In this document: positions 23,070 through 45,836 of the stretch, one piece after another | Numbering within the stretch: position 1 is the first letter of the stretch | Layout of the letters: each line of letters begins with the position of its first letter | Assembly: GCA_963799775.1 (NCBI GenBank) | Contig: CAWCYD010000003.1 | Span: 1,792,001-1,856,000, forward strand | Reading direction: 5' to 3' | Source: an uncultured archaeon | GTDB taxonomy: Archaea > Thermoproteota > Nitrososphaeria > Nitrososphaerales > Gagatemarchaeaceae | Length of the DNA stretch: 64,000 nucleotides | The notes under the pieces: generated by a model | What the model saw: only the letters and a program-made list of their open reading frames with translations | What the model was told of the DNA's origin: nothing | Databases searched by the model: none | Translations under genes and position numbers: made by a program

Positions 23070-23146
23070 GCCGCGATAGCTCAGCCTGGTAGAGCGTTAC
23101 CTTGGTAAGGTAAAGGTCGCGTGTTCAATTCCCGCTCGCGGCTCCA
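23070..23146 (+). tRNA. tRNA-Thr(GGT), no intron, CCA encoded
   Basis: GCCGCGA/TCGCGGC acceptor, TTACC-TTGGTAA-GGTAA anticodon arm; one T-stem mismatch (GCGTG/CCCGC). Confidence 0.9.
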
Positions 23147-23152
23147 ATCCTA

Positions 23153-24136
23153 TCAAGACGCCATCGAAGATTTTCGGATTTTTCTCTTGATTGTTTGAAT
23201 CTTGACGTAGACGTCGAAATCCTCGAGAACCCTGTTTCGAATCTCAGGAGCGGGTAACCCTTTCGCAATCAAGGCTTGTACCACTTCTTCAAGCCAATCG
23301 GGCCAAGTCGGCCCTTGAAACGTTCTCGCGCCCACCATTTTCTCCAACAACTTTCTTCGGTAGGTAAGGACAGCCGGACTGAAGATTTGAATTTTCGCGG
23401 CCGTCGGTGCATCTACGGCTACATAGCCGTAGCCACGGGAGAACCTGATTACGCTCTTGACGCCCAAGGACACGAAAATTCTATGAAAGAAATGCGTATT
23501 CGGAGAGCTTGTTATCTCGATTAACTTGTTCCTCAGATTCACACTCCCATCCGAATCTGCGATTCCCCTCAAGAACCAGAGGCGGAACACTACTGGCGCG
23601 TCAAGCAACCAGTCCATCTTCACTGGATGCAACGTCGTCCTCTCATCCCAGTTCATGCCAAGAGCTGCCACATGTAGCCAACCTACAACAGGAGAGAAGG
23701 TAGACTTCCAAAAGAAGGACCCGTTAGGATTGCTTTTCAAAACAGGTCTGTCTTTGTAGCGCTTGAACCATATACCAATCATCCTAACGCACTCTGCTAC
23801 GTGCTCTCCGAGGTCCAGATTTTCGGGATGCTTCTTGGTGAGTTGCATAGCAATCCTCGCGGAGAGTCTTCGCTCATTCCCGTAGTCCTTGCCAAAATCA
23901 CCCACGCACCAACCCAGCAAGTAATACATTGAGGCAAGGAATCGATCACGGTCGACAACCGCGACTCCAGTGAGGCACTCGACTACCTTTAGCATTACGG
24001 AATCGAATTGCTTATGCGAGGCGGCACGCCCGGGAACAATTACCGACTTTGTGCGCTTCCGGTCGAGGTATAGACGGAAAAACTCGATTTCAGCGGACGA
24101 TTCCGCCGTAGGCTCTTCTTGAACAGAAACGAGCAC
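23153..24136 (-). CDS. Free-standing double-motif LAGLIDADG endonuclease-like protein
   Basis: YLLGWCVGDFG and WFLRGIADSDGSV motifs; no intein splicing motifs or host gene; lower GC. Confidence 0.75.
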   Translation of the reverse strand: MLVSVQEEPTAESSAEIEFFRLYLDRKRTKSVIVPGRAASHKQFDSVMLKVVECLTGVAVVDRDRFLASMYYLLGWCVGDFGKDYGNERRLSARIAMQLTKKHPENLDLGEHVAECVRMIGIWFKRYKDRPVLKSNPNGSFFWKSTFSPVVGWLHVAALGMNWDERTTLHPVKMDWLLDAPVVFRLWFLRGIADSDGSVNLRNKLIEITSSPNTHFFHRIFVSLGVKSVIRFSRGYGYVAVDAPTAAKIQIFSPAVLTYRRKLLEKMVGARTFQGPTWPDWLEEVVQALIAKGLPAPEIRNRVLEDFDVYVKIQTIKRKIRKSSMAS

Positions 24137-30230: not shown

Positions 30231-30393
30231 GGGGTCGTCGGCTAGGCCAATCCGAATCACTTCGGCTTGGGGCTAGTCTGGTCTAGGCTTCAATCACAAA
30301 TCGGAAGATGCCTCGGGAAGAGAGCAGATTTGCAGTGCGAATCTGTCTCGAGAACGCTTGAGACCCCCGGTTCAAATCCGGGCGACCCCACCA
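30231..30393 (+). tRNA. tRNA-Pro(CGG) with three introns (15/16, 29/30, 37/38), CCA encoded
   Basis: Removing 30246-30276, 30294-30309 and 30318-30354 gives GGGGTCG/CGACCCC acceptor and CAAGC-CTCGGGC-GCTTG anticodon arm; central BHB helices GGCT/GGCT, CTTC/GAAG, CTCG/CGAG. Confidence 0.88.
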
Positions 30394-30481
30394 CGTCAAG
30401 GAATTCGAGCCTCGCATCCGGATGGCCCGGGCACGAACAAAGGCTATTACGACGCGCTCGAAGAACGGTGCTCACCTTATT

Positions 30482-31571
30482 TTGAGCCGCATCGTCGGTC
30501 ACCTCGACCTAGACTATTTCTTCGCCCAAGTCGAAGAGGTAGAGAACCCCTCGCTCAAGGCCCGGCCTGTCTTGGTGTGTGTCTTCTCGGGGAGGACGGA
30601 GGAGAGCGGCGTGATAAGCACAGCCAACTACAGGGCCAGAGAGCACGGCGTCAAGTCAGGGATGCCAATCGCCCTGGCGAAGCGCCGGCTCCAGGGAGTC
30701 GAGGCCACCTTCATCAGGATGGACCACGCAAAGTACGAGGCCTACTCCGCCCGGGTGATGGAGATCCTCCGCAGCGAGGTGGACAAGCTGGAGCAGACAG
30801 GGATAGACGAGGCCTTCTTCGACATCACCAAGAGGACTGGAGGCGACTACACAGCCGCATCTTCTCTCGCGAAAGAAATCAAGGCAAGGATACTCAGCGA
30901 GGAGAAGCTCACTTGCTCGATTGGGATATGACCCAACAAGGTGGTCGCGAAGATTGCCTCCGATTTCAAGAAGCCGGATGGTCTCACCATCGTCAAGGAT
31001 GCGGACGTCAGCAGCTTCCTCGCCACCATGACGGTGGACAGAATCTATGGGGTCGGACCTAAGACAGCGAAACTGCTCGAAGAGAAAGGCATCGCAACGA
31101 TACCCGACCTTGCTAAGACACCGATGCAATCTCTCGAGGATGCTCTCGGCAGGAAACTCGCAGTCTACCTGCACAACACCTCCAACGGGATCGACGACGA
31201 GCCGGTGAACCACAGCGGCGGGATCACGCAGCTGAGCAGGATAATCACCCTGAAGCGCGACACCCACGACGTAGGGGAGGTCATGGATGAGCTTCGCCCG
31301 GCGCTACGAGACGTCCATGAGAGATTGGTCTCGAAGAACCTTTTCTTCAAGAACCTCTCGGCACTTGGGATAAGCAAGAACCTCTCGCTCCACACAAGGA
31401 GCAAGACCCTCGAGACGCCCACGAACGACTACTCGCTCGTCGAGAAGGAGACCGAGCAGCTCTTCGCGACGCTCCTCCGAGAGGTCGGAGACCTTCGCCG
31501 GGCCGGCCTTCGAATCGGTGAACCTCCAGGACATGGTCGACCAGCACTCCCTGACGGAGTTCACCCGCTAG
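30482..31571 (+). pseudogene. dinB: Y-family DNA polymerase IV (DinB/Dpo4) with in-frame TGA at 30929 and a late frameshift
   Basis: HLDLDYFFAQVE, TANYRAREHGVKSGMP, GIDEAF, SIGI*PNK; may be intact if the lesions are sequencing errors. Confidence 0.8.
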
Positions 31572-31587
31572 GTAGAGGTCTAGAGAG

Positions 31588-32013
31588 GTGTCCAAGACAA
31601 TCGCATCAAAGGACGACCTAGCCTCGCGATTCGCCCGCTACTCGAAGGACCAGGCCCAGTTCGCGAAGGCCGTAGACGCCGTGTTCGGAGGCTCGGTGAA
31701 GAAGCACGTCTTCACGCCGAGCGGCAGGGCCATCTTCTCTGTGGTCGGGAGCAACGCCGACGAGTTCATCGACCCTGACAAGTCGTTCTGCTCGTGCGAG
31801 TCCTACTTCTACAGCGTCCTGAGCGCCAAGACCAGGCAATGCTATCATCTCCTCGCCTACAAAATCGCCTCCGAGTCGGGCCTGATTCACGAGGTCGAGT
31901 TCGACGACGAAGAGTACGACCTCTTCATGAGGCTCCTCGCGTCAGATGTCCTGCACTCGCGAGAGATAGGGAAGACGCCCAAGAAGAGGCAAGACTTCAC
32001 TTGGGAAAGCTAA
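31588..32013 (+). CDS. SWIM Zn-finger protein
   Basis: FCSCESY...CYHLLA. Confidence 0.8.
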   Translation: MSKTIASKDDLASRFARYSKDQAQFAKAVDAVFGGSVKKHVFTPSGRAIFSVVGSNADEFIDPDKSFCSCESYFYSVLSAKTRQCYHLLAYKIASESGLIHEVEFDDEEYDLFMRLLASDVLHSREIGKTPKKRQDFTWES

Positions 32014-32324
32014 AGCGTCCCTGCAACCCCTCACGCGAAAAGGGAAATCGACCCTTCATGCCGCGTTGGAAAAATTCCATGCAAGACTTATCAACAAAAC
32101 GTGAGAAGATAGCAATAGTGGATTCATGACCAAACTATGAATAAATAGATGCAAAGTCTAGTTGATTGAGTAAGGCCGTGACCTCTGAAACCCCAAAAGG
32201 CGGAATCGCTATGATATTGTCGCCGCAATCCTCATTGTGTTAGCATCCATGACCATAGGTCCGTGACCTTAGTTTCTTCTGATATTATTAGCCCCAAGTT
32301 ACTTCATGTTGGGACGATGTTCGA

Positions 32325-33530
32325 ATGATCCTCTCGAATCAGAATTCGTTCTTCAAGTCAAGGGGTCTCAATATCGGAATTATGATGGTGATTCTCACTC
32401 TTCTGCTGCTTTCTAGAGCATTGCCAGTAGGTGCCGTTGCATCTCCCACTTCTTTCTGCTCTCCTGCTGCGATAAACAGCGCCACCGAGGCCCTTGATGC
32501 TAATATCAACCAAGCAACAATCAAAGAGCATGCCACATCGACAGCTGCTCTGTACTCTTCCGTCTACAACGTCCAATACGAAGGCGTATTCTTCAACACA
32601 ACATGGAATTCTAGTTGTATCGTTTCTATGGATTACGTGGGGGCGGCCTATGCAATGACGGACAAGAACGGTGCTAACTTCGTCCTAGAAATCATCGAGA
32701 GCCCGTCCCTATCGTCTGTTCTTAATGTGACAATCTCTCCCTCAGTCTCGCACAGCATTTACAATGACAGCAGTGGGAACGGGGCCAAGTGGGCCGGATA
32801 CGAATACAATTCGGGAAACGGACTCGAGGAGACTGAAGCGGATTGGTCTGTCCCCGCAATCAGTGGCCCTGGCTACGATGGGTCTGGTACGAACACGTGT
32901 GATAATGGCCAAGACCAAACATACTCGAAATGCATTTACTCTTTCTGGGTTGGCGAGACCGAAGGCCCGGGAGGTTATAACAGCTCTTCAATCACAGGGC
33001 TTGCGCAGGGCGGTACCGATTCTGATTGCAGCAATAGCTGCGATGGCACCAGCAACGGCCCTGACACATACAACATGTGGATTGAATTCGTAAACAGCAC
33101 AAGGGATGACCGGCTACCTGACACCACAGATGTCGTAGGTTCTGGCGATTCCATACAGGCTTACGTAACCGTATTCCCAACCAACGACTACTACGTGAAT
33201 GTCCTTGACGAGCACTCGGGCAAGGCATGGTCTAGTTACATGCCTAACGGCTTCGGCATGGGCAAAGCACATTATGCCCAATTCATGGGCGAAACACCTG
33301 GTGGTTATTCTCTCCCTGACTTTTCAAGCTTCAGCGTTTCGGGAGCCGGATACTACGACGATAGCAGTAACTGGCACACCATCGGAAGCGGGTGGACGAC
33401 CGAGTACGTTCAAAACTATCCATCAGCCTATCAAACATGCAACAGTCAGTCTCACAAGTGGAACGTGTGCTCTGGTTCGGTCTCTAGTGGGGACTTCGGC
33501 CAGAGCTACCTTACAACTTCTGGCTATTGA
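32325..33530 (+). CDS. Secreted glutamic peptidase (G1/eqolisin-like), paralog 2
   Basis: WAGY, ADWSVP, SFWVG, LAQGG (Gln), WIEF, VGSGDSI, FMGETP (Glu), LPDF; colinear with 24447-25643. Confidence 0.72.
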   Translation: MILSNQNSFFKSRGLNIGIMMVILTLLLLSRALPVGAVASPTSFCSPAAINSATEALDANINQATIKEHATSTAALYSSVYNVQYEGVFFNTTWNSSCIVSMDYVGAAYAMTDKNGANFVLEIIESPSLSSVLNVTISPSVSHSIYNDSSGNGAKWAGYEYNSGNGLEETEADWSVPAISGPGYDGSGTNTCDNGQDQTYSKCIYSFWVGETEGPGGYNSSSITGLAQGGTDSDCSNSCDGTSNGPDTYNMWIEFVNSTRDDRLPDTTDVVGSGDSIQAYVTVFPTNDYYVNVLDEHSGKAWSSYMPNGFGMGKAHYAQFMGETPGGYSLPDFSSFSVSGAGYYDDSSNWHTIGSGWTTEYVQNYPSAYQTCNSQSHKWNVCSGSVSSGDFGQSYLTTSGY

Positions 33531-33647
33531 TATGTCAAACAAATCTGCCAAACCTGGATAATCAGAAAGTTGCCGTGATAGAGCAATCCATCTCAATCCT
33601 TTTCTAGACCATCCCCAATAAAATTCTAACACTGAAGCTGGTGGCCT

Positions 33648-34514
33648 TTGAACAGTCGAACCGGAATCGCCCTGCTCGTGATCGGGTGCCTAATTCTTGG
33701 TTCGATTGCAACATATCAACAGATTCTCATCACCAAATCACCAGAGATAGCGAAAACAGTCACGGCTACAATCTCTCAAACTCAGACGACGACAATCACG
33801 TTGTCCACTACCACTTCAGTAAACAACACAGTGATTGTTTCGGCGGCGAATCAAACCATAGCCTCGACCTTGGGGCCGAACGGGATAATGTTACTGACTT
33901 CTATCAATGCCACAACTCTTATTGTCGGGCAACAATTGGAGATTAGCGTTTCGCTCTTCAATTCACTCCCTAGAGTAAACAGCGTACCAACCGCGGCTGA
34001 CTGGCAATTTAGAGGCGTCCCACTTTCCTTGTGGCAGGATTGCGATGTAACTCCTGCCAAACCCAATGGGCAAATGGAAACATATGCTACCGAGGTAGTC
34101 GTGCTGCCGGGATACTATACAATCAGCAACATATCGACGGTCGCCAGTGTCTTACTTCCCACTCAAGCTTGTCATGGCTTATCGAGTATGATAGACCACG
34201 TTATTTTCCAGCCGACCAGCTCAACGGCAAATATTACCGGAATCGGTGGAGTGTCAGCGAGTGGACCGATTAACATGACCGCCGGTCCATTCCACACATC
34301 GAACAGCTTCACTACTCGCGGAAGTTGGGATCTTTCAAGTGCTTTGTCTCAGCTTTTGAACGGAAGTCAGCCAGCTATCATCACTAACAACAAACCCGAG
34401 CAAGCAGCTAATATTCCTCCCACAACGTCATTCTCTCCTGGGATATACACGATAGGAATCTCAGATGAATGGGGGCAGAATATCATTTTTCACTTCGACG
34501 TTTTGTCAGAGTAA
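33648..34514 (+). CDS. Membrane-anchored Thr-rich partner protein, paralog 2
   Basis: TM helix, Thr linker, GPNGIMLL...VSLFN...PGIYTIGISDEWG. Confidence 0.72.
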   Translation: MNSRTGIALLVIGCLILGSIATYQQILITKSPEIAKTVTATISQTQTTTITLSTTTSVNNTVIVSAANQTIASTLGPNGIMLLTSINATTLIVGQQLEISVSLFNSLPRVNSVPTAADWQFRGVPLSLWQDCDVTPAKPNGQMETYATEVVVLPGYYTISNISTVASVLLPTQACHGLSSMIDHVIFQPTSSTANITGIGGVSASGPINMTAGPFHTSNSFTTRGSWDLSSALSQLLNGSQPAIITNNKPEQAANIPPTTSFSPGIYTIGISDEWGQNIIFHFDVLSE

Positions 34515-34691
34515 TACAGACAGAAAGGAGGAAGTACGAGCACTTGTTTAATATTGTGTAAACAGAAGCTTGCTATCCCTGATTGGTTTCATTCGTGTCC
34601 AAAATATCACCATGACCTCTCAATCCCTAGGGGGAAGCTTCAACACGACGAGTTACAATAGGGCACCGAACCCGTAAATTTTGAAGATACG

Positions 34692-34792
34692 AGCCACAGA
34701 AGGGATTTGAACCCTCGACCTTCTGCTTACAAGGCAGTTGAGCCGAGAAGCATTCATTCTCGTATGCTCTAGCCAGGCTGAGCTACTGTGGC
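34692..34792 (-). tRNA. tRNA-Thr(TGT) with a 26-nt intron at 27/28
   Basis: GCCACAG/CTGTGGC acceptor; removing 34763-34738 gives TCTGC-CTTGTAA-GCAGA; BHB central helix GAGC/GCTC and intron hairpin CGAGAA/TTCTCG. Confidence 0.9.
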
Positions 34793-36244
34793 CCGAGCAC
34801 CCCCGCTTCTGATTCGGCTTAATCTCCTTTCCGTCAGTGACCTAGCAAAAAGGGCTCGGCAATCGACCGAAATCGCTTGCTTCGTATTCGGATAAGCAAG
34901 AGCAGCTGCCTTGTGACATCCTCCCGCGTTCTCGGAACGTGGGCTTTCAGCGGTTTGGTTTCCGCCTCTAGTTCCTGCTTCAACGACCGAGCTTGCAGCC
35001 CCAGTTGACCAGGGCCGTAGAGATCCGGTCTCCACAGGCTTGAGTTCGGGCGCGACCCGCCCAGGGTGCTCCTGAACGCGTCGAGGACCGCCACGGTCCT
35101 TGTCCCGCCCTACCTGAAGTATTCCTCTCTTCAGCACGACTCGACTAGCATTTCTGTCGCGGTCTAGAATCTTCTGGCAGCCCTTGCAAGGGAACTCGCG
35201 CACGTCCAACGACACTTCAGTGCGGGTTCCACATGACCAGCACTCTTGGGAGCTGAACGCCGGGGGCACTTTCACAAATATCTTCGCCGCCCGCGCTGCC
35301 TTGTATTCAACGAACTCCATGAGCTGGGCCCACGATGCATCCTTGATTGACTTGGCCAGGCTGTGGTTCCTTACCATGTTCCCGATACGCAAATCCTCGA
35401 AAGCCAGCAGGTCATGGTCTCTGACTAGTCTCGCGCTGAGCTTGTGGTTGAAATTCCGCCTCCTTCCGGATACCCTCGAGTACCGAGTTGCAAGTTCGAG
35501 CCGTGCCTTGTCTCGGTTCTTCGAGCTGGGTCTCTTGTTCGCCAGGCTCTTGTGAAGGCGGGCTAATCGCCTCTCAGATTTCCTAAAGAACCTCTGGGGC
35601 TCAACTCTCTCTCCATCGCTGGTGGTTATCAATGATTTCAGCCCCAAGTCAACACCTAGAGGCGATGTCCACGCTCTGGGGAGGGACACATCACATAATG
35701 GCATCCTGCTTTCGTACACCAGGCAAGCGAACCACTTGCCGTCCGGCTCGCGTTTGACTGTGCAAGTCTTGAGCTTCGCGCCCACCGGAACCGACCTGTG
35801 AATGACGACCTTGACATTGCCAATCTTAGAAAGATGTAGCCGATTCTTTTCGGTCTCGAGTTTGGCTCCGCCATTGTACGCCTGAGGATAGGTGAATGAA
35901 CCCCATCCACTGTGTTTCTTGAGTCCCGGGAACTTACCTTTGCCTCCGAAGAATTTCTTGAACGCCCTATCCACCCTCCTCAGCACGTCCTGGAGCGTCT
36001 GCATGTATAACGACCTCATCTCAGAGTTCTCTCTTACTTCGGTCGTAAGCATGAGACATTGCTGCCAGTAGGTTGTGGAATGTCTCTCTCCCTGCCACCT
36101 CGCCTTCCTGTCTTCAATGGCCATATTCCATAGACGGCGACAAACATCGACCGTCTCAATCATGCTCTTCTCTTGTCTTCTGTTCGGGTAGAGCCTAAAC
36201 TTGAAGACACTCCGAGCATTCAACTGGGAACTAACCCAAACCAA
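34769..36244 (-). CDS. tnpB: IS200/IS605-family TnpB RNA-guided nuclease, no TnpA in window
   Basis: FKFRLYPN, RuvC-I GVDLG, RuvC-II AFEDL, Zn finger CWSCG...CKGC, RuvC-III DRDRNA; ORF reads through the right end into the tRNA. Confidence 0.93.
   Translation of the reverse strand: MVWVSSQLNARSVFKFRLYPNRRQEKSMIETVDVCRRLWNMAIEDRKARWQGERHSTTYWQQCLMLTTEVRENSEMRSLYMQTLQDVLRRVDRAFKKFFGGKGKFPGLKKHSGWGSFTYPQAYNGGAKLETEKNRLHLSKIGNVKVVIHRSVPVGAKLKTCTVKREPDGKWFACLVYESRMPLCDVSLPRAWTSPLGVDLGLKSLITTSDGERVEPQRFFRKSERRLARLHKSLANKRPSSKNRDKARLELATRYSRVSGRRRNFNHKLSARLVRDHDLLAFEDLRIGNMVRNHSLAKSIKDASWAQLMEFVEYKAARAAKIFVKVPPAFSSQECWSCGTRTEVSLDVREFPCKGCQKILDRDRNASRVVLKRGILQVGRDKDRGGPRRVQEHPGRVAPELKPVETGSLRPWSTGAASSVVEAGTRGGNQTAESPRSENAGGCHKAAALAYPNTKQAISVDCRALFARSLTERRLSRIRSGGARATVAQPG
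34899..35115 (-). ncRNA. Predicted TnpB omegaRNA (scaffold plus about 14-nt guide); 5' boundary approximate
   Basis: Right-end hairpin GCCCACGTTCCGAGAACGCGGG followed by AGGATGTCAC (ends 34913); downstream flank AAGGCAGCTGCTCT is the predicted guide. Confidence 0.65.
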
Positions 36245-36247
36245 GCA

Positions 36248-36665
36248 TTAAGCACCCATGGAACGCCGAAGTTCGGCGAGAACTTTCCGAAGTTCCCCGC
36301 CCGACTGGGCAAGGAAATCTGCGTCCTTTAGGATCAGAGACAGAGTCGCAAGCTTATCCCGATTCTCATTGGGTGCCTCGATGAAGGCCCCGCAGACCAA
36401 CTTCGGCAGCGTGGCTTTTAGCAGCCCAAATCTGAGATTCATGTATGCAGCGCGTCGCCGTAGCTCCGAGAGAGCTGTTCCATTCCGCCTGCTGCAAGAA
36501 GTGCACTCGAGCACAATCCCACTTCCAAGAAACACCAGGAAATCCACAGAGATGCCCCTCTACGGGGTCGGAGGCCGAAGCTCGAACACATGGTGAGACG
36601 AAAGACAGCCGTTCCTCAATCAGGAGATTCCTGACCGACTCCTCTTGGAAGGTCAGGGGCATCAT
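36248..36665 (-). pseudogene. Small PD-(D/E)XK-like nuclease, disrupted by a frameshift and a stop
   Basis: Joined frames read QEESVRNLLIEERLSF..HHVFEL....*RGISVDFLVFLGSGIVLECTS; ends 4 nt before the tnpB start. Confidence 0.4.
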
Positions 36666-36877
36666 TGCATGAGTCCTCCTCATCCATGCGATTGACGTGA
36701 CAGTTTACACCTATGCTATACCTCCTAGGGCTATTTAACCACCCATAGAACAAGACATTATTCTGCCTCTGATTGATAAACGGGGCTAGATTCGAGCTTC
36801 TATCATTGGGACAAACAGGATGACATTGCCGCTTAATTGTGGCCTACCACATGGTGTAACGCGCAGGCGGTCTATCG

Positions 36878-37576
36878 ATGAAAGGGCTCATTGTTCTTGC
36901 GGAGGGAACAAGACAAGACTTTCTGACTGTCTTGATTGACCAATCGTCCTTTGGGCTGCAACTCAATCGAGTCCTTTGCGTCTCTGACAAAGAGGAACAA
37001 AACTCGGCGATTGAGAAGCGCTTCGAGGAGTTCGGATACAGGCCAGAATTCCTCTCCTATTCCGACTTGCGGAAAACCAATGCAATGACCGCGAGAGGCA
37101 AGTCAGTCCTCCTCATCTCACCAGCAGAGGCAATCAACGAGTCTGATGCAAGGGGCATGATCGATGGCGGACTGGTCAAACTGCTCACCAGCAAGATTTG
37201 GAGGAATGTTCTCGCGTTCCATGAGACAGACGCTCCTCTTGGCATCACCCAGGTCAGGGCCCTTGACCACCTGTCTGAGTGGATCTCCAGAGGAATCAAT
37301 GAACGGCCGAAAGCTTGGTTCTACGAAATCTTGCTAACGCTGTTGTATAGGAGGCACGAGAGTGTCAGAGGCCTTCAGCGACTACTTGCAAAATCAGTCT
37401 GGAGCCAGCTCGTCCGTACTGATACAGCATCCGCAATCAGACAAGCGCGCGCAGAATTTCTGCGAGAGAATCTCATCTCTGAACGAAAAGGCAGCCTCAC
37501 TTGCAGCGAATCCGGGCGGCGGGCAGTAGAAGATTACACCCCGTTTGACAAGATTGAGTGTCCCGGACACCCGTAA
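36878..37576 (+). CDS. Hypothetical protein with C-terminal Hel308/Ski2-like winged-helix domain
   Basis: EILLTLL...AEFLRENLISERKGSLTCSESGRRAVEDY resembles the Hel308 WH motif (L...g.I.......T..G...s..Y); no Walker motifs. Confidence 0.5.
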   Translation: MKGLIVLAEGTRQDFLTVLIDQSSFGLQLNRVLCVSDKEEQNSAIEKRFEEFGYRPEFLSYSDLRKTNAMTARGKSVLLISPAEAINESDARGMIDGGLVKLLTSKIWRNVLAFHETDAPLGITQVRALDHLSEWISRGINERPKAWFYEILLTLLYRRHESVRGLQRLLAKSVWSQLVRTDTASAIRQARAEFLRENLISERKGSLTCSESGRRAVEDYTPFDKIECPGHP

Positions 37577-39431
37577 GCCACGTGATATCGATGAGAACGG
37601 TCCACGTCCGGGTTGGGAGCCTGATGACGACTCTCGTGAGCGTTCTGACTATCTCGAGGAACTGGTTTCCGAGAGCATAGAGAGACATGGATGGGTGACT
37701 GTCAACGAGGTCGCCACAGCAGCAGTCGACAGTCGAGTGATGCCGACCCGATCGAATGCAAAGTCGCGGAGGATCCTGAAGAAGCTCGTCGCCAAGGGAA
37801 GGCTCGTGGAGTCTGTCTACAGGACTGGCGTGGGCAGGCCACGTCTGGTCTACAGGAGGCGAAACTCCACAGATGCGGCAGAAATCTTCGATAATTCTTG
37901 CGGTGATTGCGCGCTCTACTCTCCTGTCGTGAGGAGATGCAGGTTGTGGTTGGCACTTTCTAGATTCAATGCTCAGCAAGTCTACGAGAGGCAAGAAGAA
38001 CTATCGGCCATCGCACGAGACAAGCTGCGCAACTCCAACAGAAGGGTAGGGCCTACTGCCACGGCCTGCGAGATATTCACTCCCAAGAAAAAGGATTATC
38101 CCCTGTCACAAGCCCGGGACAAATGTGCATCCTGCGGGCAGGAGATTGATACTCCCGTGGCGAAGACCGTCAAGTGTCCCAAATGCCTGACCACGTACAA
38201 GCCCCTCGCAACGAAGATCCTGGTCCACTACGACTACGAACAGTTGTTCAAGGCGCGTTATACTAAGCTAGCAGGAGTGCCACCCCCAAGGCAGGCTCTC
38301 GTGCTTACGGAGCAGGAAGTTCGCGCAGGAAAGACTGACTGGCGCGACATCATCGTTCTCTACCCTGGCGAGAAAGTTAGGCTGGAGGCAGAGGGCATCC
38401 ATGTGGAGCGAAGAAAAGGACGCTTGGCGTTCGAGCCTTACAATCGCATTTACCAGATCATCGATTATGGGGCGCTTACTGACAGGATGATTTGCTCCCT
38501 GAAGGCCGAAGGACTCTCCGTATTGCAGGGGCGTCTCCAAGAGGGTCCCAAAGGGAGAACGTCGTTCCCACTTTACCCGTCGCTTGGATTCGTCGAGAAG
38601 CTGCGCTGGCTCGAGCAGAATTCTCCCCTCCGCAGAGAACTCCTCAAATCGATGATGCTCAGCACGATAGTCGCCACCAAGAGGATAGCGAGCCGCGGCG
38701 GGCCAGGATTGAAGGTCCTTGTGAACCGGCAACTCCTCGAATTCGCCCGGATGAACACGGATGCCGAAATCTCTGTAAGCAGAGCTCTCGCCTACGAAGC
38801 TCGGGCCAACCGCCTATACTGGAGTGCCTACAAGACGATGCTCAGGGTCTCAGGGCTGGGGTTCGAAAGCAGAGTGAGGGACAGATTCGTCAGGGAGATA
38901 GTGCAGAGCATTAGGGCAAGGGCTAGAGGATATTCTCCCGCGAACGCTGCGATAAACTATCTCCACCAGAGGAGACTGCTCTTGTGTCGTCTCGCTAACG
39001 CGAGGACCGCCATCGGTTGGGTCGGATGCGAGGGAATACTCCACGTCGCGAAGAGGGAGCCAAGCATAGGCCTCTTGCTAGACCTCAGCGACTCTTTCAA
39101 GCTGGCTGATAGGGAGAGCTTCCTGAACGCGACGCTTCACATCGAGGTGACAAGGGACGATTTTGTTGCCCGTCTAGGAAGGCAGAGGACCTGGTTCTAC
39201 TATCCGACCCAGGAGGCAGTCGGCAAACTCGATTTGTATGGCTCACACGCCGACCAGTTTCACGTCGTCTATCGAGGTAAGAACATGACCTTGACTGGAG
39301 CTTATGATGAGCTACTAACCTCATTCATCGAGGCCGTAGAGAATTCTGACCTGACTCGTTTCTACCCATTTGTCTATGGCGGCGAAGAAGACGCAATGTG
39401 GCTCGAGAGTATGGATTCTGAGAGAGAATGA
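37545..39431 (+). CDS. cas1: Solo Cas1-family integrase with N-terminal wHTH and Cys/Zn domains
   Basis: Cas1 beta domain (IIVLYPGEKVRLEAEGIHVE...PYNRIYQII) and catalytic domain YEARANRLYW, FESR, PANAAINY, GILH, LLLDLSDSFK; N-terminal wHTH, CGDC...C, CASC...CPKC. Confidence 0.8.
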   Translation: MTRLSVPDTRKPRDIDENGPRPGWEPDDDSRERSDYLEELVSESIERHGWVTVNEVATAAVDSRVMPTRSNAKSRRILKKLVAKGRLVESVYRTGVGRPRLVYRRRNSTDAAEIFDNSCGDCALYSPVVRRCRLWLALSRFNAQQVYERQEELSAIARDKLRNSNRRVGPTATACEIFTPKKKDYPLSQARDKCASCGQEIDTPVAKTVKCPKCLTTYKPLATKILVHYDYEQLFKARYTKLAGVPPPRQALVLTEQEVRAGKTDWRDIIVLYPGEKVRLEAEGIHVERRKGRLAFEPYNRIYQIIDYGALTDRMICSLKAEGLSVLQGRLQEGPKGRTSFPLYPSLGFVEKLRWLEQNSPLRRELLKSMMLSTIVATKRIASRGGPGLKVLVNRQLLEFARMNTDAEISVSRALAYEARANRLYWSAYKTMLRVSGLGFESRVRDRFVREIVQSIRARARGYSPANAAINYLHQRRLLLCRLANARTAIGWVGCEGILHVAKREPSIGLLLDLSDSFKLADRESFLNATLHIEVTRDDFVARLGRQRTWFYYPTQEAVGKLDLYGSHADQFHVVYRGKNMTLTGAYDELLTSFIEAVENSDLTRFYPFVYGGEEDAMWLESMDSERE

Positions 39432-39930
39432 CAGGCGTTGAAAACTCATTCTGCCAAAATGATATCATCGCGACCAGTGGCGGCACCAGCGAACGCACTT
39501 GCAATTAGTCAGGGCGCGGCTGTTGCTCTCGCCGAGGCCTCTACAATATTCGTACAACATACTGCAAACTCGAAAGTCAGCTTCAGTCCCTATTTCTCCA
39601 AAGTCGTCGGGCTCGGATGCTCGGTCCGTTCACAATCACAGTCGACGCGCAGATAACCTACCAACTCGTGAGCAATACCTGGCTAATGCACCAAGAGGTC
39701 TGGAATTTTGTCAGCTTCCATAGCCAGAACACGGGCGGCTGGCCCACTTTTCCCCCCAATGGCAAATCGTCGGCCCTCCGCTTCCGCAGCACTATTCTGA
39801 GAGCCCATTCAAGAACTGGGTCTACTTCGATGGGGGCGCTGCCGCAGCAACGCTTCTGGCAGGATACCTCGCGACGATCCCCATCTTCGTCTACATCAAG
39901 AAGCGAAAACGCGTTTAGTCGCCAATATGG

Positions 39931-40371
39931 TTACTTTAGTGACTTCAGTGTCTTGAGGGCTTCGTAAGCCGAGGTAACCACCGCCGCGGAAATGACAGCA
40001 AGTGCGAAGACGAACAGCGGGGAAATCGTCGCTGGTCGTAAGAAAATCAACATAACTAAGAGGGATGTGAGGAAGAACGCAATATAGGCTACCTGGGTAG
40101 GAATCGCGAGTCGTTTGAATCGGATTACGTTATCAAACACAACCCTGTCGATGATGTAACCTTCTTGCACCTCCTTAACCAGTCCGAGTTGGAGCAATTT
40201 CTTTACATGATACTGAGCAACCGAAATCGAACTCAAACCTAGGTCTCGTTGGATTTCCCCAGTCCGGATAGGCTCGCCCGCCTTGAATATGTAGCGATAT
40301 ACTCTAAGAGTCGTTCCCTTTAATGATTCGCGAGAATCCTCTGACTGAGACTCGAACTCCGTCATACTCAC
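39931..40371 (-). CDS. HTH regulator with two C-terminal TM helices
   Basis: LKGTTLRVYRYI...EIQRDLGLSSISVAQYHVKKLLQLGLV plus two TM helices. Confidence 0.8.
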   Translation of the reverse strand: MSMTEFESQSEDSRESLKGTTLRVYRYIFKAGEPIRTGEIQRDLGLSSISVAQYHVKKLLQLGLVKEVQEGYIIDRVVFDNVIRFKRLAIPTQVAYIAFFLTSLLVMLIFLRPATISPLFVFALAVISAAVVTSAYEALKTLKSLK

Positions 40372-40480
40372 GCAATTATCATTTGTCTTATATGCCTAAA
40401 CATTAGGTATGAGTTCGATTTACAACCTAAACAATAGGTAGATGCACTGGCCTTCGTCATACCACAACGGCGAGGACCAA

Positions 40481-41089
40481 ATGTCAGAATTTAGAAAGGA
40501 AATCGCGATAGGTGTCACGGTTGCGGTCGTAGTTGCCACAGCATTGGCCATTGCTTCAATCTCATCATTTTCTGGCCCATTAGGAGCCGCTTCCAGTAAT
40601 CCGAGTCAAACGTTGGTCGAGTCGCAGACTACGACATACATTTCACAATCACAATCATCCGTAACCATTTTCTCTAGTCAATCACTTTCCGGACCGCAAT
40701 ATCACCTGACATTCCAAGTTCTGGGAACATGCAATTCGAGCACAATATACTTGCCATGGGGCGTGACCATCTGGAATTCAACGATGAATAATCAGACCGA
40801 AAGCGTCCCAACAGGCACGCCTCTCGCAGAACTAGAGCAAGTTTCGGGGCTTCCGCCAGCGGCGGTCAATGGTTCAACGCAATCCACTACTACAATCACT
40901 GCGAGTTTCACCGGAAGCTCAGTAAGCAAACCGACCACCTTGCAAGACATGATAAACTTCACGCTCCCCGTAGGCACCTACTATTATCAGACGTATGGTC
41001 TGTCGATGGCGGAACACGGGACTGTGATTGTGAATGGAACATCGCAAGTCATTCAAATCCAACCACTCATACCGTGTTATAGCAAGTGA
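40481..41089 (+). CDS. Membrane-anchored Ser/Thr-rich protein
   Basis: N-terminal TM; LTF...PWGVT...INFTLPVGTYYY...GTVIVNG resembles thermopsin C-terminal-type repeats. Confidence 0.65.
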   Translation: MSEFRKEIAIGVTVAVVVATALAIASISSFSGPLGAASSNPSQTLVESQTTTYISQSQSSVTIFSSQSLSGPQYHLTFQVLGTCNSSTIYLPWGVTIWNSTMNNQTESVPTGTPLAELEQVSGLPPAAVNGSTQSTTTITASFTGSSVSKPTTLQDMINFTLPVGTYYYQTYGLSMAEHGTVIVNGTSQVIQIQPLIPCYSK

Positions 41090-41218
41090 TATTTTCAGGC
41101 TGCTTTGGCTTACTATGTAATTGAATTCTGTCTTCTAGACCTGTAATTTTTCCTTATAGTTGAAGCATGAACCGAAGTCCGCATAGAAATATATCATTAC
41201 AAACGCAAAAAGCTGCTG

Positions 41219-42430
41219 TTGCATCGCCCCATCGCAGCATCAATTCTTCTCGCTCTTTTCCTAACATTGCCATTAGGATTTGTGGCATCTGCTTCGACGG
41301 GGTCTTGGAACGGCCTGCCTACTTGGGCAAGGCTGCCTACGGTTCCACCTCCGATTGATGGTAAGCCGACTTGCTGGATTTTGAGTAACGGAGCATGGGT
41401 GGTTAATCCAGACGATTGCGTTCCCGTACCGCAAAATCTTATCCCCACTGAGGGAGGATTGCACCATCCCATTTACGGAGTCGACGATAATTTCATCGAA
41501 AGAGCCGCAACCTCAGTAGATGTGTCTCAATATAGCGGAGAATATGACAACCGTACAAATACGGCCGGAACCTACAGTGTTCAACTCAACACAAATATCT
41601 TTGTTGGCAATCTTTATGGGAGCAATGGGGATGAAGACTGGGACCAATTTGTTTTTCAAAATCAGCCCAATGTCCTCACTGACGAGTGTATAGTTCAGTG
41701 GGACTTATCGCAAAGCACATCACAACCTTTAGCTTATCCTGATAGCTACTGTCAGACGATTTCCCAGCAACTTCCGCTTGAAACTGCCTTCCAGGTGGTC
41801 GTGCAGGGATCTGCTACTAGTGGTTATCTTAGTGTCACTGTTTCTGCGCCGAGCTATACCCCGACTGCACTCTCGTTGACCGATGTTCTCGGTTTGGAGT
41901 ACGACAATTGGGGAACCACTTCAGGTACCATACTTGGCGCCGGGCTTTCGTCAACGGCTGATTTCTATTCTCCAGCCACGGTGTACACCGATGTTGGCAC
42001 TTATTCGAGCAACGAATACTATTCGCAACAGTCCGATACCAACACCGGTGAGATGAACAACCTGTATTACACATCTACGGGCCCTGCTGGTTGTGACACC
42101 AATTACGTCTGCTGGGAAGACACAGTGTCAAGCACTAGTTCGGGTGGTGGTTCGTTAAACCTGAATGTGAACTCGGTAAACTATAACACACAGTCTCCGA
42201 TTACTGGGTACTACACGCAACTTGACGATTCCAGCTATAATGAGCTTAGTTATGGTTATACGCCGACCACATACAGCGTGACCTACGGGAGTAACTATCT
42301 TGTTTATGCTGATGGCTATGGAAACTGCAACTTCTACCAGTGGTCTGATGGAAGCACATCGATGCCCCATCCTGTCACCCCGTATGGGGATACTACTCTC
42401 ACTGCGGAGTACACTGGCAGCAGTTGCTGA
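41219..42430 (+). CDS. Secreted protein, possibly protease-like, with C-terminal beta repeat domain
   Basis: Signal peptide; YSVQLNTN...WDQFVFQN; C-terminal YGNCNFYQWSDG...LTAEY. Confidence 0.65.
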   Translation: MHRPIAASILLALFLTLPLGFVASASTGSWNGLPTWARLPTVPPPIDGKPTCWILSNGAWVVNPDDCVPVPQNLIPTEGGLHHPIYGVDDNFIERAATSVDVSQYSGEYDNRTNTAGTYSVQLNTNIFVGNLYGSNGDEDWDQFVFQNQPNVLTDECIVQWDLSQSTSQPLAYPDSYCQTISQQLPLETAFQVVVQGSATSGYLSVTVSAPSYTPTALSLTDVLGLEYDNWGTTSGTILGAGLSSTADFYSPATVYTDVGTYSSNEYYSQQSDTNTGEMNNLYYTSTGPAGCDTNYVCWEDTVSSTSSGGGSLNLNVNSVNYNTQSPITGYYTQLDDSSYNELSYGYTPTTYSVTYGSNYLVYADGYGNCNFYQWSDGSTSMPHPVTPYGDTTLTAEYTGSSC

Positions 42431-42601
42431 GTATCCTCGCGGCTCCGCCCAAGACTCACTGGTAGGGTCAAGAAGAGACGGACTGTCTCCTCGGACTCTA
42501 TTCTCGAGGCTCAGAATCGGCTTGCAAATCGCACTATCCACAGATTCCCTGTTGGCCCAAAGATAATATCAATCCAATCTCGCAAGGTCCTCGTCACCGC
42601 C

Positions 42602-43408
42602 TTGGAGAAGCGCGAACTGGGCAAGACAAGGGAGAAGGTGCCCGTGATCGGCATGGGGACATGGGAGGTGGGCGACTCACGAGGTGAGGGACGCGCACTC
42701 GAAATCCAGGCCGTCAGGAGAGGAATCGAACTCGGGATGGGGCTCATAGACACCGCCGAGATGTACGGCTATGGGAATGCAGAGAAGCTGGTGGGAGAAG
42801 CAATCAAGGACGTCAGAGACGAGGTCTTCATCGCGACGAAGATATCAGCCGACCACTTCCAGTATGAGGCCGTCCTGAAGGCCTGTGACGCGAGCCTAGC
42901 GCGACTGGGCGTGAAGCAGATTGACCTCTACATGCTGCATTGGCCCAACAGTCGCATCCCAATCAGCGAGACCATGAAGGCGATGGAGGAGCTGGTGTCG
43001 CGGGGAAAGATTCGCTATATCGGGGTGAGCAATTTCTCTGTGGCGCAGGTCGAGCAAGCGAGGGAGGCGCTTCCAAGGTCGGAGCTGGTCTCAAACGAGG
43101 TGCGATACAGCATAACGCACCGCTCAATAGAGTCCGAACTTCTTCCCTTCTGCGAGAAGGAGAAAATTACGGTCATCGCCTACAGCCCGCTGGACACTGG
43201 AAGGATGAGCAGCAAGATTCCGAAGGCCCTCCTCGAAAAGTACGGGATGACGCCTGCCCAATTGATGCTGAACTGGGTAACCTACGGGGAGGATGTGATC
43301 GCGATACCCAAAGCCTCGAACATCAAGCACATCGAGGAGAACGCAGCAGCGCTCGAGCCGAGGCTCTCGCCCGACGATTACAAGACCCTGTCCAGGATAT
43401 TCGACTAA
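42602..43408 (+). CDS. Aldo/keto reductase
   Basis: IGMGTW, IDTAEMYG, DLYMLHWP, IGVSNF, AYSPL, IPKAS. Confidence 0.95.
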   Translation: MEKRELGKTREKVPVIGMGTWEVGDSRGEGRALEIQAVRRGIELGMGLIDTAEMYGYGNAEKLVGEAIKDVRDEVFIATKISADHFQYEAVLKACDASLARLGVKQIDLYMLHWPNSRIPISETMKAMEELVSRGKIRYIGVSNFSVAQVEQAREALPRSELVSNEVRYSITHRSIESELLPFCEKEKITVIAYSPLDTGRMSSKIPKALLEKYGMTPAQLMLNWVTYGEDVIAIPKASNIKHIEENAAALEPRLSPDDYKTLSRIFD

Positions 43409-43411
43409 TCT

Positions 43412-45836
43412 CTAGTTTTTGGAGGCCCGGACCGCCTTGTGCGGCTTTTGGATGTGGTGCATCCTCTCCAGGTCGGGGAGATAGGGCCTCAGCTTGGTGG
43501 GCACCTTGGCTTCGATCGGTTCCCTGAGGCTCACTCCCTTGTCCCGCTTGGCCTTCCAGATCTTCTCGTCGAACTCGATGATCGCTGGCCCGATGCCCTT
43601 CGCTGCCTTACGTTTGTCGGGCTTGGGGAACGTCTCGAGGTGAATCGTGTGCTGCCCGTACAGCCTCCTCCAGATGTGGTCTGTGATGTGCGGCGTGATC
43701 GGGGCTACCAACAGCAAGACGGATTTCATCACGTGGTGGAGCGTGAACCTCGCCGCGTCGCGGTCATCCTTGGAGACCCCGTCCCCGTAGGCCCGCCCCT
43801 TGACCATCTCGATGTAGTGCGCCGCGAAGACGTTCCAGACGAACTCCCGTATCTTCGTCGCCGGCACGAACCCGTTTCCATCCTCGTAACCCGCAACACA
43901 CTCTCGTATCAACACGTTCAGTTCCGAGATGATCCAGACGTCGGTCGGCGTCAGCTTCGCCCTCTTCGGCTCCTGGAACGTCGCGATGAAGCGGCCCGTG
44001 TTCCAGAGCTTGGTGAGGAACTTGCCCGCCCCGGCCACCCTGTCCTCTGACAGCCTAAAGTCGTAACCGAGGTTCGCCTCGGCCGCGCCCCAGAATCGGA
44101 AGGTGTCCGTCCCGTACTTCTGCAGGAGCGGCTCCGGGTCCATGAAGTTCCCGAGGCTCTTGCGCATGGCCCTCCCCTGGGCGTCCTGCCCGAGGCCTCC
44201 GACCCACGCGTCGCTGAAGGGAGCCTTTCCCGTCAATAGGTAGCACCTGAGCAGCGAGTAATACAGCCAGGTCCTGACGATGTCCTTGCCTTGGAGCCTG
44301 AGCGTCGTGGGATAGGTCAGTTTGTGGAACTTTGGGTTCTTCGTGATTTTGGTAATGTAGAGCGCGGAGATGCTCGAGTCCATCCAGGTGTCGAACGTGC
44401 GGGCCTCTCCCACGAACCTCGTGTTGGCACACTTCACGCACTTTTTGAACGGGGCGGGGTCCCTTCCACGGCCTGTAATACTTCCCGGGCTTTGGCAGGT
44501 GCGGCGTCCCACATTTCCCGCAATACCAGATCGGAATCTCCGTGGCATAGTAGCGCCGCCGTGAGATGGGATAGTCCGTGGTGAGCGAGTTCATCCAGTC
44601 GAGTAGGATCTGCCTGTGCATCGGCGGGTGGAACTTGATCTGCTTCGCGAGCTTCTTCAGCGTGGGCACGAACTGGAGCTGCTTGAGGTAGAACTCCTCC
44701 ATCGGGATTATCTCGATGGGGGTGTGGCTCCTCTCGCACAGCGGCGTGCGGTGCTGCACCTGCTCGACCTTGACCGCTATCTTGGAGTCCTGGAGGTGCC
44801 TGAATTATCTGGGAGCGGGCGTCCTTCACCGCCATGGCGACATACTTCCCTGTCACGGCTGTCATCTTCCCCTCTATGTCGATTGCCTGGACCTCCTTGA
44901 GGCCGAACTGCCTGAATAGCTGGACGTCGTTGTAGTCGCCGTAGCTGCAGACCATCAGGACGCCGGTCCCGAAGGTCGGGTCGACGCTCTTGTGCGTCTT
45001 TATCGGGCACCTCGATGCCGTATACTGGGACCACGGCGGTCTTCCCCACGACGTCCTTGTATCGCTCGTCAGCCGGGTTCACCACTACGAGTTGGCACGC
45101 CGCGAGCAGCTCGGGCCTCGTGGTCGCGACCTCGATCTCGGCCCCGGTCTCCTTGACCTTGAACCTGTTCGTGACCAGGTATGTCGGGAGGTTCATCGTA
45201 TTCTATCTCGGCGTCGGCTATCGTGGTCCCGCAGTCCGTGCAGTAGTTGTTGGGCCTCGTCGCGATGTGGACCAGGCCTTTGTTCCAGAGCTCGATGAAC
45301 GACCACTGGGTGAGCGTCCTGTACTCCTCAGAGTCGGTCCTGTACTTTTCCTTGAAGTCGCCCGATATCCCGAGCCTCTTCATGAGGTCCACCATGTATT
45401 GCTCGATGTCGTCGAGCGCGTGCTTGCACAGGCCGATGAACTCGTCCCTGGGAGTCTTCCGCATCTGGATCCTGTACTTGCGCTCGGTGGCGATCTCCAC
45501 CGGCAGCCCGTTCCTGTCGATCCCCACGGGATAGAGGACGCTCAGCCCCCTCATCCTCGCCGCCCTCGCGACCATGTCTATCTGCGCGTACTGGGTGAGC
45601 GCCCCGGGGTGCCACGGTCTCCCTGAGGGGTAGGGAGGCGGCGTGTCCATCACAAAGTTGCGTTTCTTGTTGCTATTCGGTCTGAATATGAAGATATCTT
45701 GAAGGCTCCAGATTCTGCGAATCTCTTCTTCGAGCAGAGGGTTCCAACTGGTCGACTCTAGCTTGTTGGGTAGGGCTGCTGTCGCGGGAGCTGCTTCCCG
45801 CCTCGGCTCCCCCTGGGTCTCCAAAACTCCGTTCAC
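43412..45836 (-). CDS. valS: Valyl-tRNA synthetase, split by about four frameshifts
   Basis: DTPPPYPSGRPWHPG, ATTRPELL, MVCSYGD, ISRRRYYATEIP, FDTWMDSS, QGKDIVRTW, MRKSLGN across five ORFs. Confidence 0.9.

Follow-up and report, generated by a model that had tools for sequence, protein, structure and literature searches.

The window, that is, the whole 64,000-nucleotide (nt) stretch of DNA analysed here, is G000:C3:1792001-1856000 from an uncultured archaeon of the Gagatemarchaeaceae, the source genome of which is called G000. It carries a tnpB gene with an adjoining omegaRNA scaffold and guide next to an intron-bearing tRNA-Thr(UGU) gene. We put at about even the chance that this locus encodes a domesticated, free-standing, RNA-guided homing or allele-exclusion nuclease, for which the tRNA intron provides immunity. 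The guide is an exact match to the rival intron-less allele of relatives and the neighbouring gene is interrupted inside that match; homing or allele exclusion would be the simplest account of an immobile, nuclease-competent TnpB with a guide under selection. An earlier sequence-only reading of the same DNA had proposed that the guide targets intron-less tRNA-Thr alleles and that the intron protects the resident gene, and this interpretation is supported as far as sequence carries. Its positions for the scaffold end (34913), the guide (34912-34899), the TTAC motif, the exons and the intron were all correct.

Comparisons were made with 41 related genomes, 401 genomes of the order and metagenome contigs (L-numbers). 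Five orthologous loci include the right end (G000, G019:C126, L044, L045 and L046; 69-77% identical). On the minus strand, the scaffold reads ...GGAGGATGTCAC up to 34913 and is followed by AAGGCAGCTGCTCT at 34912-34899. The right-end boundary at 34913 is firm from sequence comparison: the omegaRNA-like copies in the same genome (10/10, 70-75% identical) share the terminal motif G(A/T)TG(T/C)CAC and lose their similarity at the base after it, and all 22 aligned family members have the same right end with divergence directly after it. In the 22-member alignment, compensatory changes were observed in 4 of the 23 predicted scaffold pairs. The Rfam model RAGATH-18, which describes the guide RNA scaffold of IS607-type TnpBs (excerpts of PMC11061315), gave a sub-threshold match within the scaffold at 35038-34972 (27.5 bits vs a gathering score of 44.9). 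Judged by eye in the five orthologs, no hairpin is conserved 3' of the guide.

Guide positions 1-14 are the antisense of positions 34-21 of an intron-less tRNA-Thr(UGU), directly after TTAC. The resident tRNA, with the guide starting 107 nt upstream of it, matches at 13/14 positions once spliced, as had been claimed before and was re-read in the sequence, and the mismatch is at guide position 8, which is tRNA position 27. Guide position 7 is separated from position 8 by the intron, which leaves just 7 contiguous bp in the resident gene. By arithmetic, about 2e-5 sites with at most one mismatch to a 14-mer are expected in a given spliced stretch of ~62 nt when both strands are counted; requiring TTAC as well lowers the figure to about 1e-7. 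In the whole G000 genome, the 14-mer with at most one mismatch has two further sites besides itself, neither of them after TTAC, and G000 contains neither a second tRNA-Thr(UGU) nor any other guide site beside TTAC.

The native tRNA-Thr locus of the relatives lies between two conserved blocks, a Y-family polymerase on one side (up to 31965 in the window) and an aldo-keto reductase with a class I tRNA ligase on the other (from 42602), and in G000 a 10.6-kb stretch containing tnpB and the tRNA sits between the same blocks. An intron-less tRNA-Thr(UGU) was found at this syntenic locus, between both blocks, in G018 and G022, and the same allele was found beside one of the blocks in G020 and G019:C3. 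These four alleles, all from congeneric assemblies, read GAGCAGCTGCCTTGTAA, with TTAC followed by 14/14 guide bases (antisense), or 16/16 when the last two scaffold bases are counted, which agrees with the proposal that intron-less alleles are the target. The spliced linked tRNA matches 13/14 in all five orthologous loci, so the guide fits the rival allele better than the intron-less form of its own tRNA. In other congeners, position 27 is A (G001, G005, G009, G010 and G014) or C (G004 and G012), so that guide position 8 is mismatched; in G004 there is an intron in the D-loop as well.

For the resident tRNA gene, the Rfam tRNA model RF00005 scored 45.4 bits against a gathering score of 29 (E 1.1e-07) at 34792-34692 (minus strand), with one long insertion, and the alignment is complete on either side of it. 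Default ARAGORN, run without introns, missed this tRNA-Thr(UGU). Exon 1 is 34792-34764, the 26-nt intron between positions 27 and 28 is 34763-34738, and exon 2 is 34737-34692. In the folded pre-tRNA, the 3-nt bulge AUA separates a helix of 4 bp (GAGC:GCUC) from one of 6 bp (CGAGAA:UUCUCG); the bulge on the other strand (AA|C) and the short outer helix were assigned by eye. By our own reading, this is the archaeal bulge-helix-bulge motif with splice sites after the second bulge base, and splicing is predicted; removal of the intron at 27/28 restores the U27-A43 pair. The linked tRNA-Thr(UGU) is the single copy in the G000 assembly and is at the native locus, and it is a distinct allele that differs from the native one in the D-loop (GGCTA vs GGTA), in the T-loop (GGTTCAAATCC vs GGATCAAATCC) and in the pair 27-43 (U27-A43 vs G27-C43). 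A tRNA-Thr(UGU) with an 18-nt intron at 27/28, likewise ending GCTCAA, was observed in G037 (L020), from another family of the order.

The conservation of the guide in the orthologous loci was compared with that of its surroundings. Among the 41 related genomes, only G019:C126 matches the omegaRNA-flank-tRNA stretch (79% over 418 nt), and it is 76.8% identical to G000 from the tnpB start to the tRNA end. A search of the 401 genomes of the order for the junction pattern, tolerating up to 3 mismatches, gave hits with 0 mismatches in G000 and G019 and one hit with 3 mismatches in a further genome, G385. The metagenome scan gave 48 relatives, four of them 69-73% identical (L044, L045, L046 and the partial L061) and the rest at most 55% identical. 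Guide positions 1-15 (34912-34898) are invariant in 5/5 loci, as are 20 of the 23 guide columns. Those 15 positions continue the 10 bases at the scaffold end, which are also invariant, to give 25 nt in a row; in the 400 nt upstream, unbroken invariance extends over 19 nt at most. Past the guide, the next 43-100 nt are unalignable, and then the promoter block and a tRNA-Thr(UGU) with U27 and the same 26-nt intron follow in all five loci. The two observations that had been suggested as checks, conservation of only the tRNA-matching flank and co-occurrence of tnpB with the 27/28 intron, thus came out as a flank that is not unrelated among orthologs and a co-occurrence in 5/5 loci. Third-codon positions within the guide are invariant; since synonymous sites are invariant there and near saturation elsewhere, protein coding does not explain the conservation. 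Family members at most 55% identical have unrelated flanks, and in two further groups of contigs that are related and share flanks (L047/L051 and L058/L060/L064) the similarity runs for at least 40 nt, with no abrupt stop at about 23.

The TnpB protein is likely to be a working nuclease under purifying selection, judging from its sequence and that of its orthologs. Pfam matches are PF01385 (OrfB_IS605, 65.8 bits), PF07282 (Cas12f1-like_TNB, 65.2 bits) and PF12323 (HTH_OrfB_IS605, 39 bits), and the protein aligns to the ISDra2 TnpB structures 8h1j and 8bf8 at E about 4e-44. In that alignment, D, E and D occur in the motifs GVDLG, FEDL and DRDRN, which from the ISDra2 residue numbers we take to be the catalytic triad, and a CxxC...CxxC zinc finger is also present. 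The three RuvC acidic residues noticed earlier, their motifs and the zinc finger are intact in 5/5 orthologs. In comparisons of G000 with the other four, the ratio of nonsynonymous to synonymous substitution rates (dN/dS) was 0.08-0.17 over 362 codons, and the proportion of synonymous differences (pS) was 0.38-0.71. The conserved protein begins near FKFRLYP, the start codon being uncertain, and the open frame continues through scaffold and guide to a stop at 34769 (491 aa). The frame through the guide (KAAALAY) is open in all five orthologs, with stops 66-141 nt past the boundary at differing places. Several TnpB paralogs are likewise open through the omegaRNA scaffold into the flank, which gives each copy a different C-terminal tail.

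The absence of tnpA, at first noted for the window, extends to the whole 2.47-Mb assembly, in which neither the Y1 transposase PF01797 nor the serine recombinase PF00239 was found, the controls being positive. The left-end hairpin of the paralogs is missing at this tnpB, and its own left end has decayed. DNA similarity between G000 and G019 begins only within the first tnpB codons, and the region upstream is unconserved at the DNA level among the orthologs; a small gene and a Cas1-like gene are the upstream neighbours in G000 and L045, and the aldo-keto reductase is directly upstream in L046. What stays constant is the unit between the tnpB start and the 3' end of the tRNA, with neighbours that differ from locus to locus. 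Since there is no conserved left end and no TnpA in the genome, the locus is no longer a transposon, and a mobile IS200/IS605 or IS607 element was rejected for the same two reasons.

As the transposon-associated motif (TAM) of this enzyme, TTAC is plausible from the sequences that precede related elements. Before the left ends of 12 distinct related loci, TTAT (4), TTAA (3), CTAT, TTTA, ATTA, GATA and one incomplete motif were observed, mostly then followed by C, and the candidate target carries CTTAC. In L048, L053 and L054, three copies of one element, the flanks are TTTAC, TTAC and TTAAC if a shared C is counted. The motif taken as TAM in the sequence-only reading would therefore be compatible with the relatives' TTAT, TTAA and TTTA(C), while its label as the IS608-type motif is an analogy only. 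For comparison, the TAM of ISDge10 is TTAT (excerpts of PMC13507860).

Signs of replacement were observed at two loci. Before the conserved downstream block, a remnant of the native tRNA 3' end is left in G019:C126 (15 nt, 345 nt beyond the intron-bearing tRNA) and in G011 (20 nt, 2.1 kb beyond it). The contig G019:C3 begins 91 nt downstream of a native allele that is intact, and over 105 nt it shares 93% identity with C126; the G019 bin contains no further copy of the downstream block. G019 may consist of two strains with and without the module, or both may occur in one genome.

In the proposed mechanism, the unit of tnpB, omegaRNA, guide and intron-bearing tRNA would combine an RNA-guided nuclease with a protective intron. 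The fixed guide of the domesticated TnpB-omegaRNA would specify the part of an uninterrupted tRNA-Thr(UGU) that reaches from the anticodon arm to the D-arm, antisense and after TTAC, and the resident tRNA would be immune because its 26-nt intron parts guide positions 7 and 8 and because it has U27 where the guide expects G. On meeting an intron-less G27 allele, TnpB would break a single-copy, presumably essential tRNA gene, and the survivors would be cells whose tRNA allele had been replaced by the module-bearing one. For this scheme we infer transcription and the 3' end of the omegaRNA, TTAC as TAM, cleavage at a 14-bp match and repair by copying. Published guide data make a 14-bp TAM-proximal match a credible substrate: ISDra2 uses a 16-nt guide with a seed of about 12 bp (excerpts of the review PMC13639567), and in ISFba1 one mismatched base among positions 1-13 is enough to impair or abolish cleavage, and the protein makes no contact with base pairs 15-20 (excerpts of PMC11061315). 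A more specific and tentative claim, to which we give somewhat less than an even chance, is that the locus is a natural archaeal RNA-guided gene drive, in which the immobilised TnpB drives the linked intron-protected tRNA allele, and with it the intron, into new chromosomes, tRNA introns serving as immunity to homing nucleases.

Several observations weigh against homing or allele exclusion. Only 14 of the 21-23 conserved guide nucleotides match any tRNA-Thr allele seen, and positions 15-23 of the guide, despite their conservation, lack a counterpart in every allele found. The 21-mer had no match in 185,579 species genomes except the G019 locus itself, and the 17-mer had 13 matches in viral contigs, none extending beyond 17 nt, of which 6 are in tRNA-like genes and 7 elsewhere; the latter look like a chance number by rough estimate. 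Exact TTAC occurs in the flanks of the relatives only if the shared C is counted as flank, and a 10-nt guide of ISDge10 binds without cutting (excerpts of PMC13507860). The metagenome-assembled genome G019 (59% complete) holds the module and a perfect target on two contigs, C126 and C3, and if both were in one cell, efficient cutting would be contradicted. In G037, no nuclease gene lies within 1.5 kb of the 27/28 intron, so such an intron can exist alone. The related loci are kin, so that counts overstate their independence, and since the tRNA ligase, the polymerase and the small gene are frame-split in G000, single-base errors are possible.

Among the rival explanations, defence or exclusion is unlikely. 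Under it, the guide would destroy incoming DNA, such as a virus or plasmid carrying a tRNA-Thr(UGU) or a phage attachment site (attP), the intron would only block autoimmunity, and nothing would be copied. The anatomy is identical to that expected for homing, and there is a Cas1-like gene at a distance of 1.3 kb; tRNA genes serve as integration sites, and disruption of such sites is a role that has been suggested for introns (Randau and Soll 2008, as cited in excerpts of PMC4090602), attachment-like direct repeats of the tRNA 3' end occur at the locus in G019 and G011, and the 17-mer is present in phage tRNA-Thr genes. Those repeats, however, span only the last 15-20 nt of the tRNA and not the guide-matched positions 21-38, no archaeal viral contig with the target was among the 13 viral 17-mer matches (6 tRNA-like), and the exact match is the chromosomal allele of congeners. 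PADLOC detected no family besides Cas1 and Cas12-like in six neighbourhood proteins. A cleave-and-rescue addiction, in which loss of the module with a return to, or renewed gain of, the native tRNA leads to killing of the cell or chromosome by TnpB, would stabilise the island with no homing. It would suit a nuclease aimed at a single-copy, presumably essential tRNA gene that adjoins a resistant copy, in a genome with one tRNA-Thr(UGU) and with the module inside a genome-specific 10.6-kb stretch. It is quite unlikely, as L046 has the module without the island genes, and loss of the module would remove the sole tRNA-Thr(UGU), so that the tRNA alone already enforces retention.

The flank could also be a relic: an insertion sequence entered the anticodon-loop TTAC of a tRNA-Thr copy, the flank is its scar, other constraints conserve it and the position of the intron is a coincidence. 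TnpB guides do arise only from insertion flanks and TTAC-like sites are targets of the family; the TnpB C-terminal tail (KAAALAY, its frame open through the guide in 5/5) and 3' processing of the omegaRNA are candidate constraints, and the conservation of positions 15-23 without a tRNA match fits them. To this explanation we give only a slim chance, given that the 14-nt piece is inverted relative to the tRNA with nothing else of a second tRNA left, that synonymous positions in the guide are invariant against a pS of 0.38-0.71 elsewhere, that the tail diverges right past the guide and stops 66-141 nt downstream at differing places, and that tnpB is under strong purifying selection despite the lack of TnpA. 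Finally, TnpB might bind without cutting, as a repressor or roadblock on tRNA-Thr DNA, or the guide, being complementary to mature tRNA positions 21-34, might pair with tRNA-Thr transcripts. Short matches bind without cleavage in ISDge10 (excerpts of PMC13507860), and domesticated TldR proteins are RNA-guided repressors (excerpts of the review PMC13565253). This too is decidedly improbable: the RuvC triad is intact in 5/5 loci, unlike in TldR, the resident gene gives 7 contiguous bp and the genome has no other site with TTAC. We know of no RNA-targeting TnpB, which weighs against action at the RNA level.

SegB of phage T4 belongs to the GIY-YIG family. Like the nuclease proposed here, it is free-standing, cleaves tRNA genes and promotes the inheritance of its own tRNA region (excerpts of PMC13565253); it differs in being protein-guided, acting in phage co-infection and involving no intron. 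In phages, free-standing homing endonucleases and neighbouring introns home collaboratively (excerpts of PMC13565253). Such collaborative homing, in which a nuclease gene stands beside an intron-bearing gene, the cleavage site spans the intron insertion point and the intron confers immunity, has the same anatomy, as here the nuclease adjoins an intron-bearing gene and the guide target spans the intron site of the intron-less allele. The present locus differs in being RNA-guided, in having a host-spliced bulge-helix-bulge intron instead of a self-splicing group I intron and in residing on a cellular chromosome; by analogy it would be an RNA-guided form of collaborative homing. The IS200/IS605 TnpB-omegaRNA systems are alike in protein family, in an omegaRNA over the gene 3' end, in a guide after the right end and in a nuclease expected to cut the "empty" allele next to the TAM (excerpts of PMC13565253). 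Unlike them, this locus has no TnpA and no conserved left end, and it is fixed in place with a guide conserved across species (dS, the synonymous divergence, 0.5-2), the "empty" allele being a neighbouring gene without the tRNA intron and not a site without the transposon. TldR, too, derives from TnpB by domestication, has its guide RNA encoded alongside and acts on a fixed target in the chromosome, but it has lost RuvC activity and targets promoters of its own genome (excerpts of PMC13565253), whereas here the triad is intact and there is no own-genome target. Identity with TldR was rejected on the intact RuvC triad and on the lack of a second guide site with TTAC in the genome. The hypothesis of introns as shields also has an intron interrupting the recognition sequence of a selfish element in a tRNA gene (Randau and Soll 2008, as cited in excerpts of PMC4090602); it concerned integrase attachment sites, whereas here the sequence is the target of an RNA guide and the nuclease is linked to the protected gene.

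If the homing reading is true, the non-canonical bulge-helix-bulge tRNA introns of this lineage would persist and spread as immunity to tRNA-directed homing nucleases, both TnpB and LAGLIDADG, which would supply a missing mechanism for archaeal tRNA intron gain. It would also be a third TnpB lifestyle besides the transposon retention nuclease and the nuclease-dead repressor, with a nuclease-competent TnpB kept for long at one locus (dS 0.5-2) and holding one guide against a neighbour's rival allele. One defined pair of sequences would make testable why archaeal tRNA genes bear introns at odd positions. Full-text searches, judged on listings and abstract openings, found no paper reporting such a case in its title or abstract.

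The order of features on the minus strand, 5' to 3', is the small gene, tnpB, the omegaRNA scaffold, 23 conserved bases, the spacer, the promoter-like block and tRNA-Thr(UGU), and the positions are listed in Table 1. The block at 34793-34838 is a likely tRNA promoter.

Table 1. Positions in the window of the features at the tnpB and tRNA-Thr(UGU) locus.
Feature	Position	Strand	Details and evidence
tnpB up to the right-end boundary	34913..36244	-	444 codons; open reading frame (ORF), Pfam, ISDra2 alignment, dN/dS
omegaRNA scaffold, overlapping the tnpB 3' end and ending in GGGAGGATGTCAC	~34913..35072	-	about 150 nt; own-genome copies, family alignment
Conserved guide AAGGCAGCTGCTCTTGCTTATCC	34890..34912	-	conservation in orthologs, match to native alleles
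Variable spacer, 51 nt	34839..34889	-	unalignable among orthologs, 43-100 nt in them
Conserved block CTGACGGAAAGGAGATTAAGCC... upstream of the tRNA (likely promoter)	34793..34838	-	kept in 5/5 orthologs; resembles the block before native alleles
tRNA-Thr(UGU) gene	34692..34792	-	Rfam RF00005, fold, intron common to 5 orthologs and G011
Split candidate target in the resident gene	34727..34770	+	TTAC 34727-34730, 7 nt (AAGGCAG, 34731-34737), 26-nt intron (34738-34763), ATGCTCT 34764-34770
Small gene, two frames	36248..36683	-	homologs upstream of the nuclease slot in relatives
G000-specific stretch, 10.6 kb	31966..42601		blastn synteny against the G018, G019 and G022 loci; Pfam

In G011, the same slot is occupied by another gene. 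The homologous 27/28 intron is present in this genome together with a further one at 37/38, and the small upstream gene and the neighbour are the same, but tnpB is missing and its slot is taken by an ORF of 310 aa that contains two LAGLIDADG-like motifs. A database search gave 72 homologs of this ORF, among them one that is named LAGLIDADG homing endonuclease by a source. A sequence search of solved structures gave nothing for this ORF, with only a profile match at E 0.52, and Pfam LAGLIDADG_3 was below cut-off. Its AlphaFold model has a predicted local distance difference test (pLDDT) of 95.4, and its best Foldseek matches are I-DmoI, I-SceI, PI-SceI and I-Tsp061I; because of this fold search, the product is predicted to be a LAGLIDADG homing endonuclease. 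The G011 slot thus resembles the archaeal I-DmoI and I-Tsp061I in having a double-motif LAGLIDADG protein beside an intron-bearing tRNA; unlike those intron-encoded enzymes, the G011 gene is free-standing outside the intron, and in G000 TnpB would take the role.

The five best matches of the G011 protein in the 41 genomes (35-100% identity, its own gene included) are all within about 100 nt of tRNA genes. The neighbours are tRNA-Thr(UGU) in G011 (own gene), tRNA-Thr(GGU) in G000 and G011, an intron-bearing tRNA-Thr(CGU) in G018 and an intron-bearing tRNA in G019:C90; free-standing LAGLIDADG genes beside tRNA genes seem to be a theme in the genus. Fifteen weaker matches examined as loci had no tRNA neighbour. 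The G000 homolog (window 23180-24073, minus strand) is 45% identical to the G011 protein, and 34 nt separate its end from the 3' terminus of a tRNA-Thr(GGU) that lacks an intron (23070-23146, plus strand); the same pair occurs in G011. At 12 other tRNA-Thr(UGU) loci, one of which (G037) carries the 27/28 intron, the flanks (only ~300 nt at two of them) gave no TnpB, LAGLIDADG or small-gene match.

The small gene has homologs upstream of tnpB in G019, L044, L045 and L061, and in G011 a copy (L040 4723-5181, minus strand) precedes the LAGLIDADG gene. The database contains 18 homologs, and the full-length ones measure about 150 aa. The gene has no Pfam match. The AlphaFold model of the G011 copy has a pLDDT of 89, and its Foldseek matches, at template modelling (TM) scores of 0.4-0.56, are the R2 endonuclease domain, AF1548, Can2, PspGI and XisH; a restriction-endonuclease-like fold is thus predicted for the product of this homolog.

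In the 10.6-kb stretch, the gene at 37545-39431 (plus strand), 1.3 kb from the module, has a product of 628 aa that includes a Cas1 domain (29.7 bits with Pfam; E 2.4e-10 with PADLOC Cas1) and, at its N-terminus, an extension of 270 aa in which CxxC pairs occur. A homolog that is 37% identical is near the module in L045. PADLOC, run on six neighbourhood proteins (five window ORFs and the G011 small ORF), reported only the Cas1 and Cas12-like families, and no CRISPR array was found in window 31000-43500. A Type V CRISPR-Cas system (Cas12f-like with Cas1) was rejected, as 31000-43500 has no repeat array and the L046 module lacks the Cas1-like gene.

The G000 assembly consists of three contigs (2.47 Mb, 59% G+C) with a completeness estimate of 81.67%. 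The class I tRNA ligase (window 43412-45836, minus strand) and the Y-family polymerase (30358-32013, plus strand) are each spread across two or three overlapping frames, which suggests assembly indel errors or pseudogenes. Window 34875-35025 has 0 differences from a short-read contig of run X1, which may stem from the source sample itself. In three DNA runs (soil metagenome contigs) covering the stretch, no joints or intron-less forms were found, and most other metagenome pieces on it are generic tRNA T-arm matches from other organisms. With introns allowed, ARAGORN gave many intron-bearing tRNA predictions across G000, several at odd positions and some very long; its calls are unreliable for unusual intron-bearing tRNAs, and the Thr gene studied here was mislabelled as Ser.

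About ten TnpB paralogs, 34-55% identical and some of them frame-split, were observed in G000, a genome without any TnpA; they include C3:21085, 294751, 840551, 1063799, 1558652 and 2033953, C2:10697 and others. Two omegaRNA-like scaffolds (C3:444813 and C3:356785) have no TnpB match beside them. On the metagenome contig L057, which carries another family member, an apparent antisense tRNA gene lies about 100-170 nt upstream of a tnpB start, near the left end.

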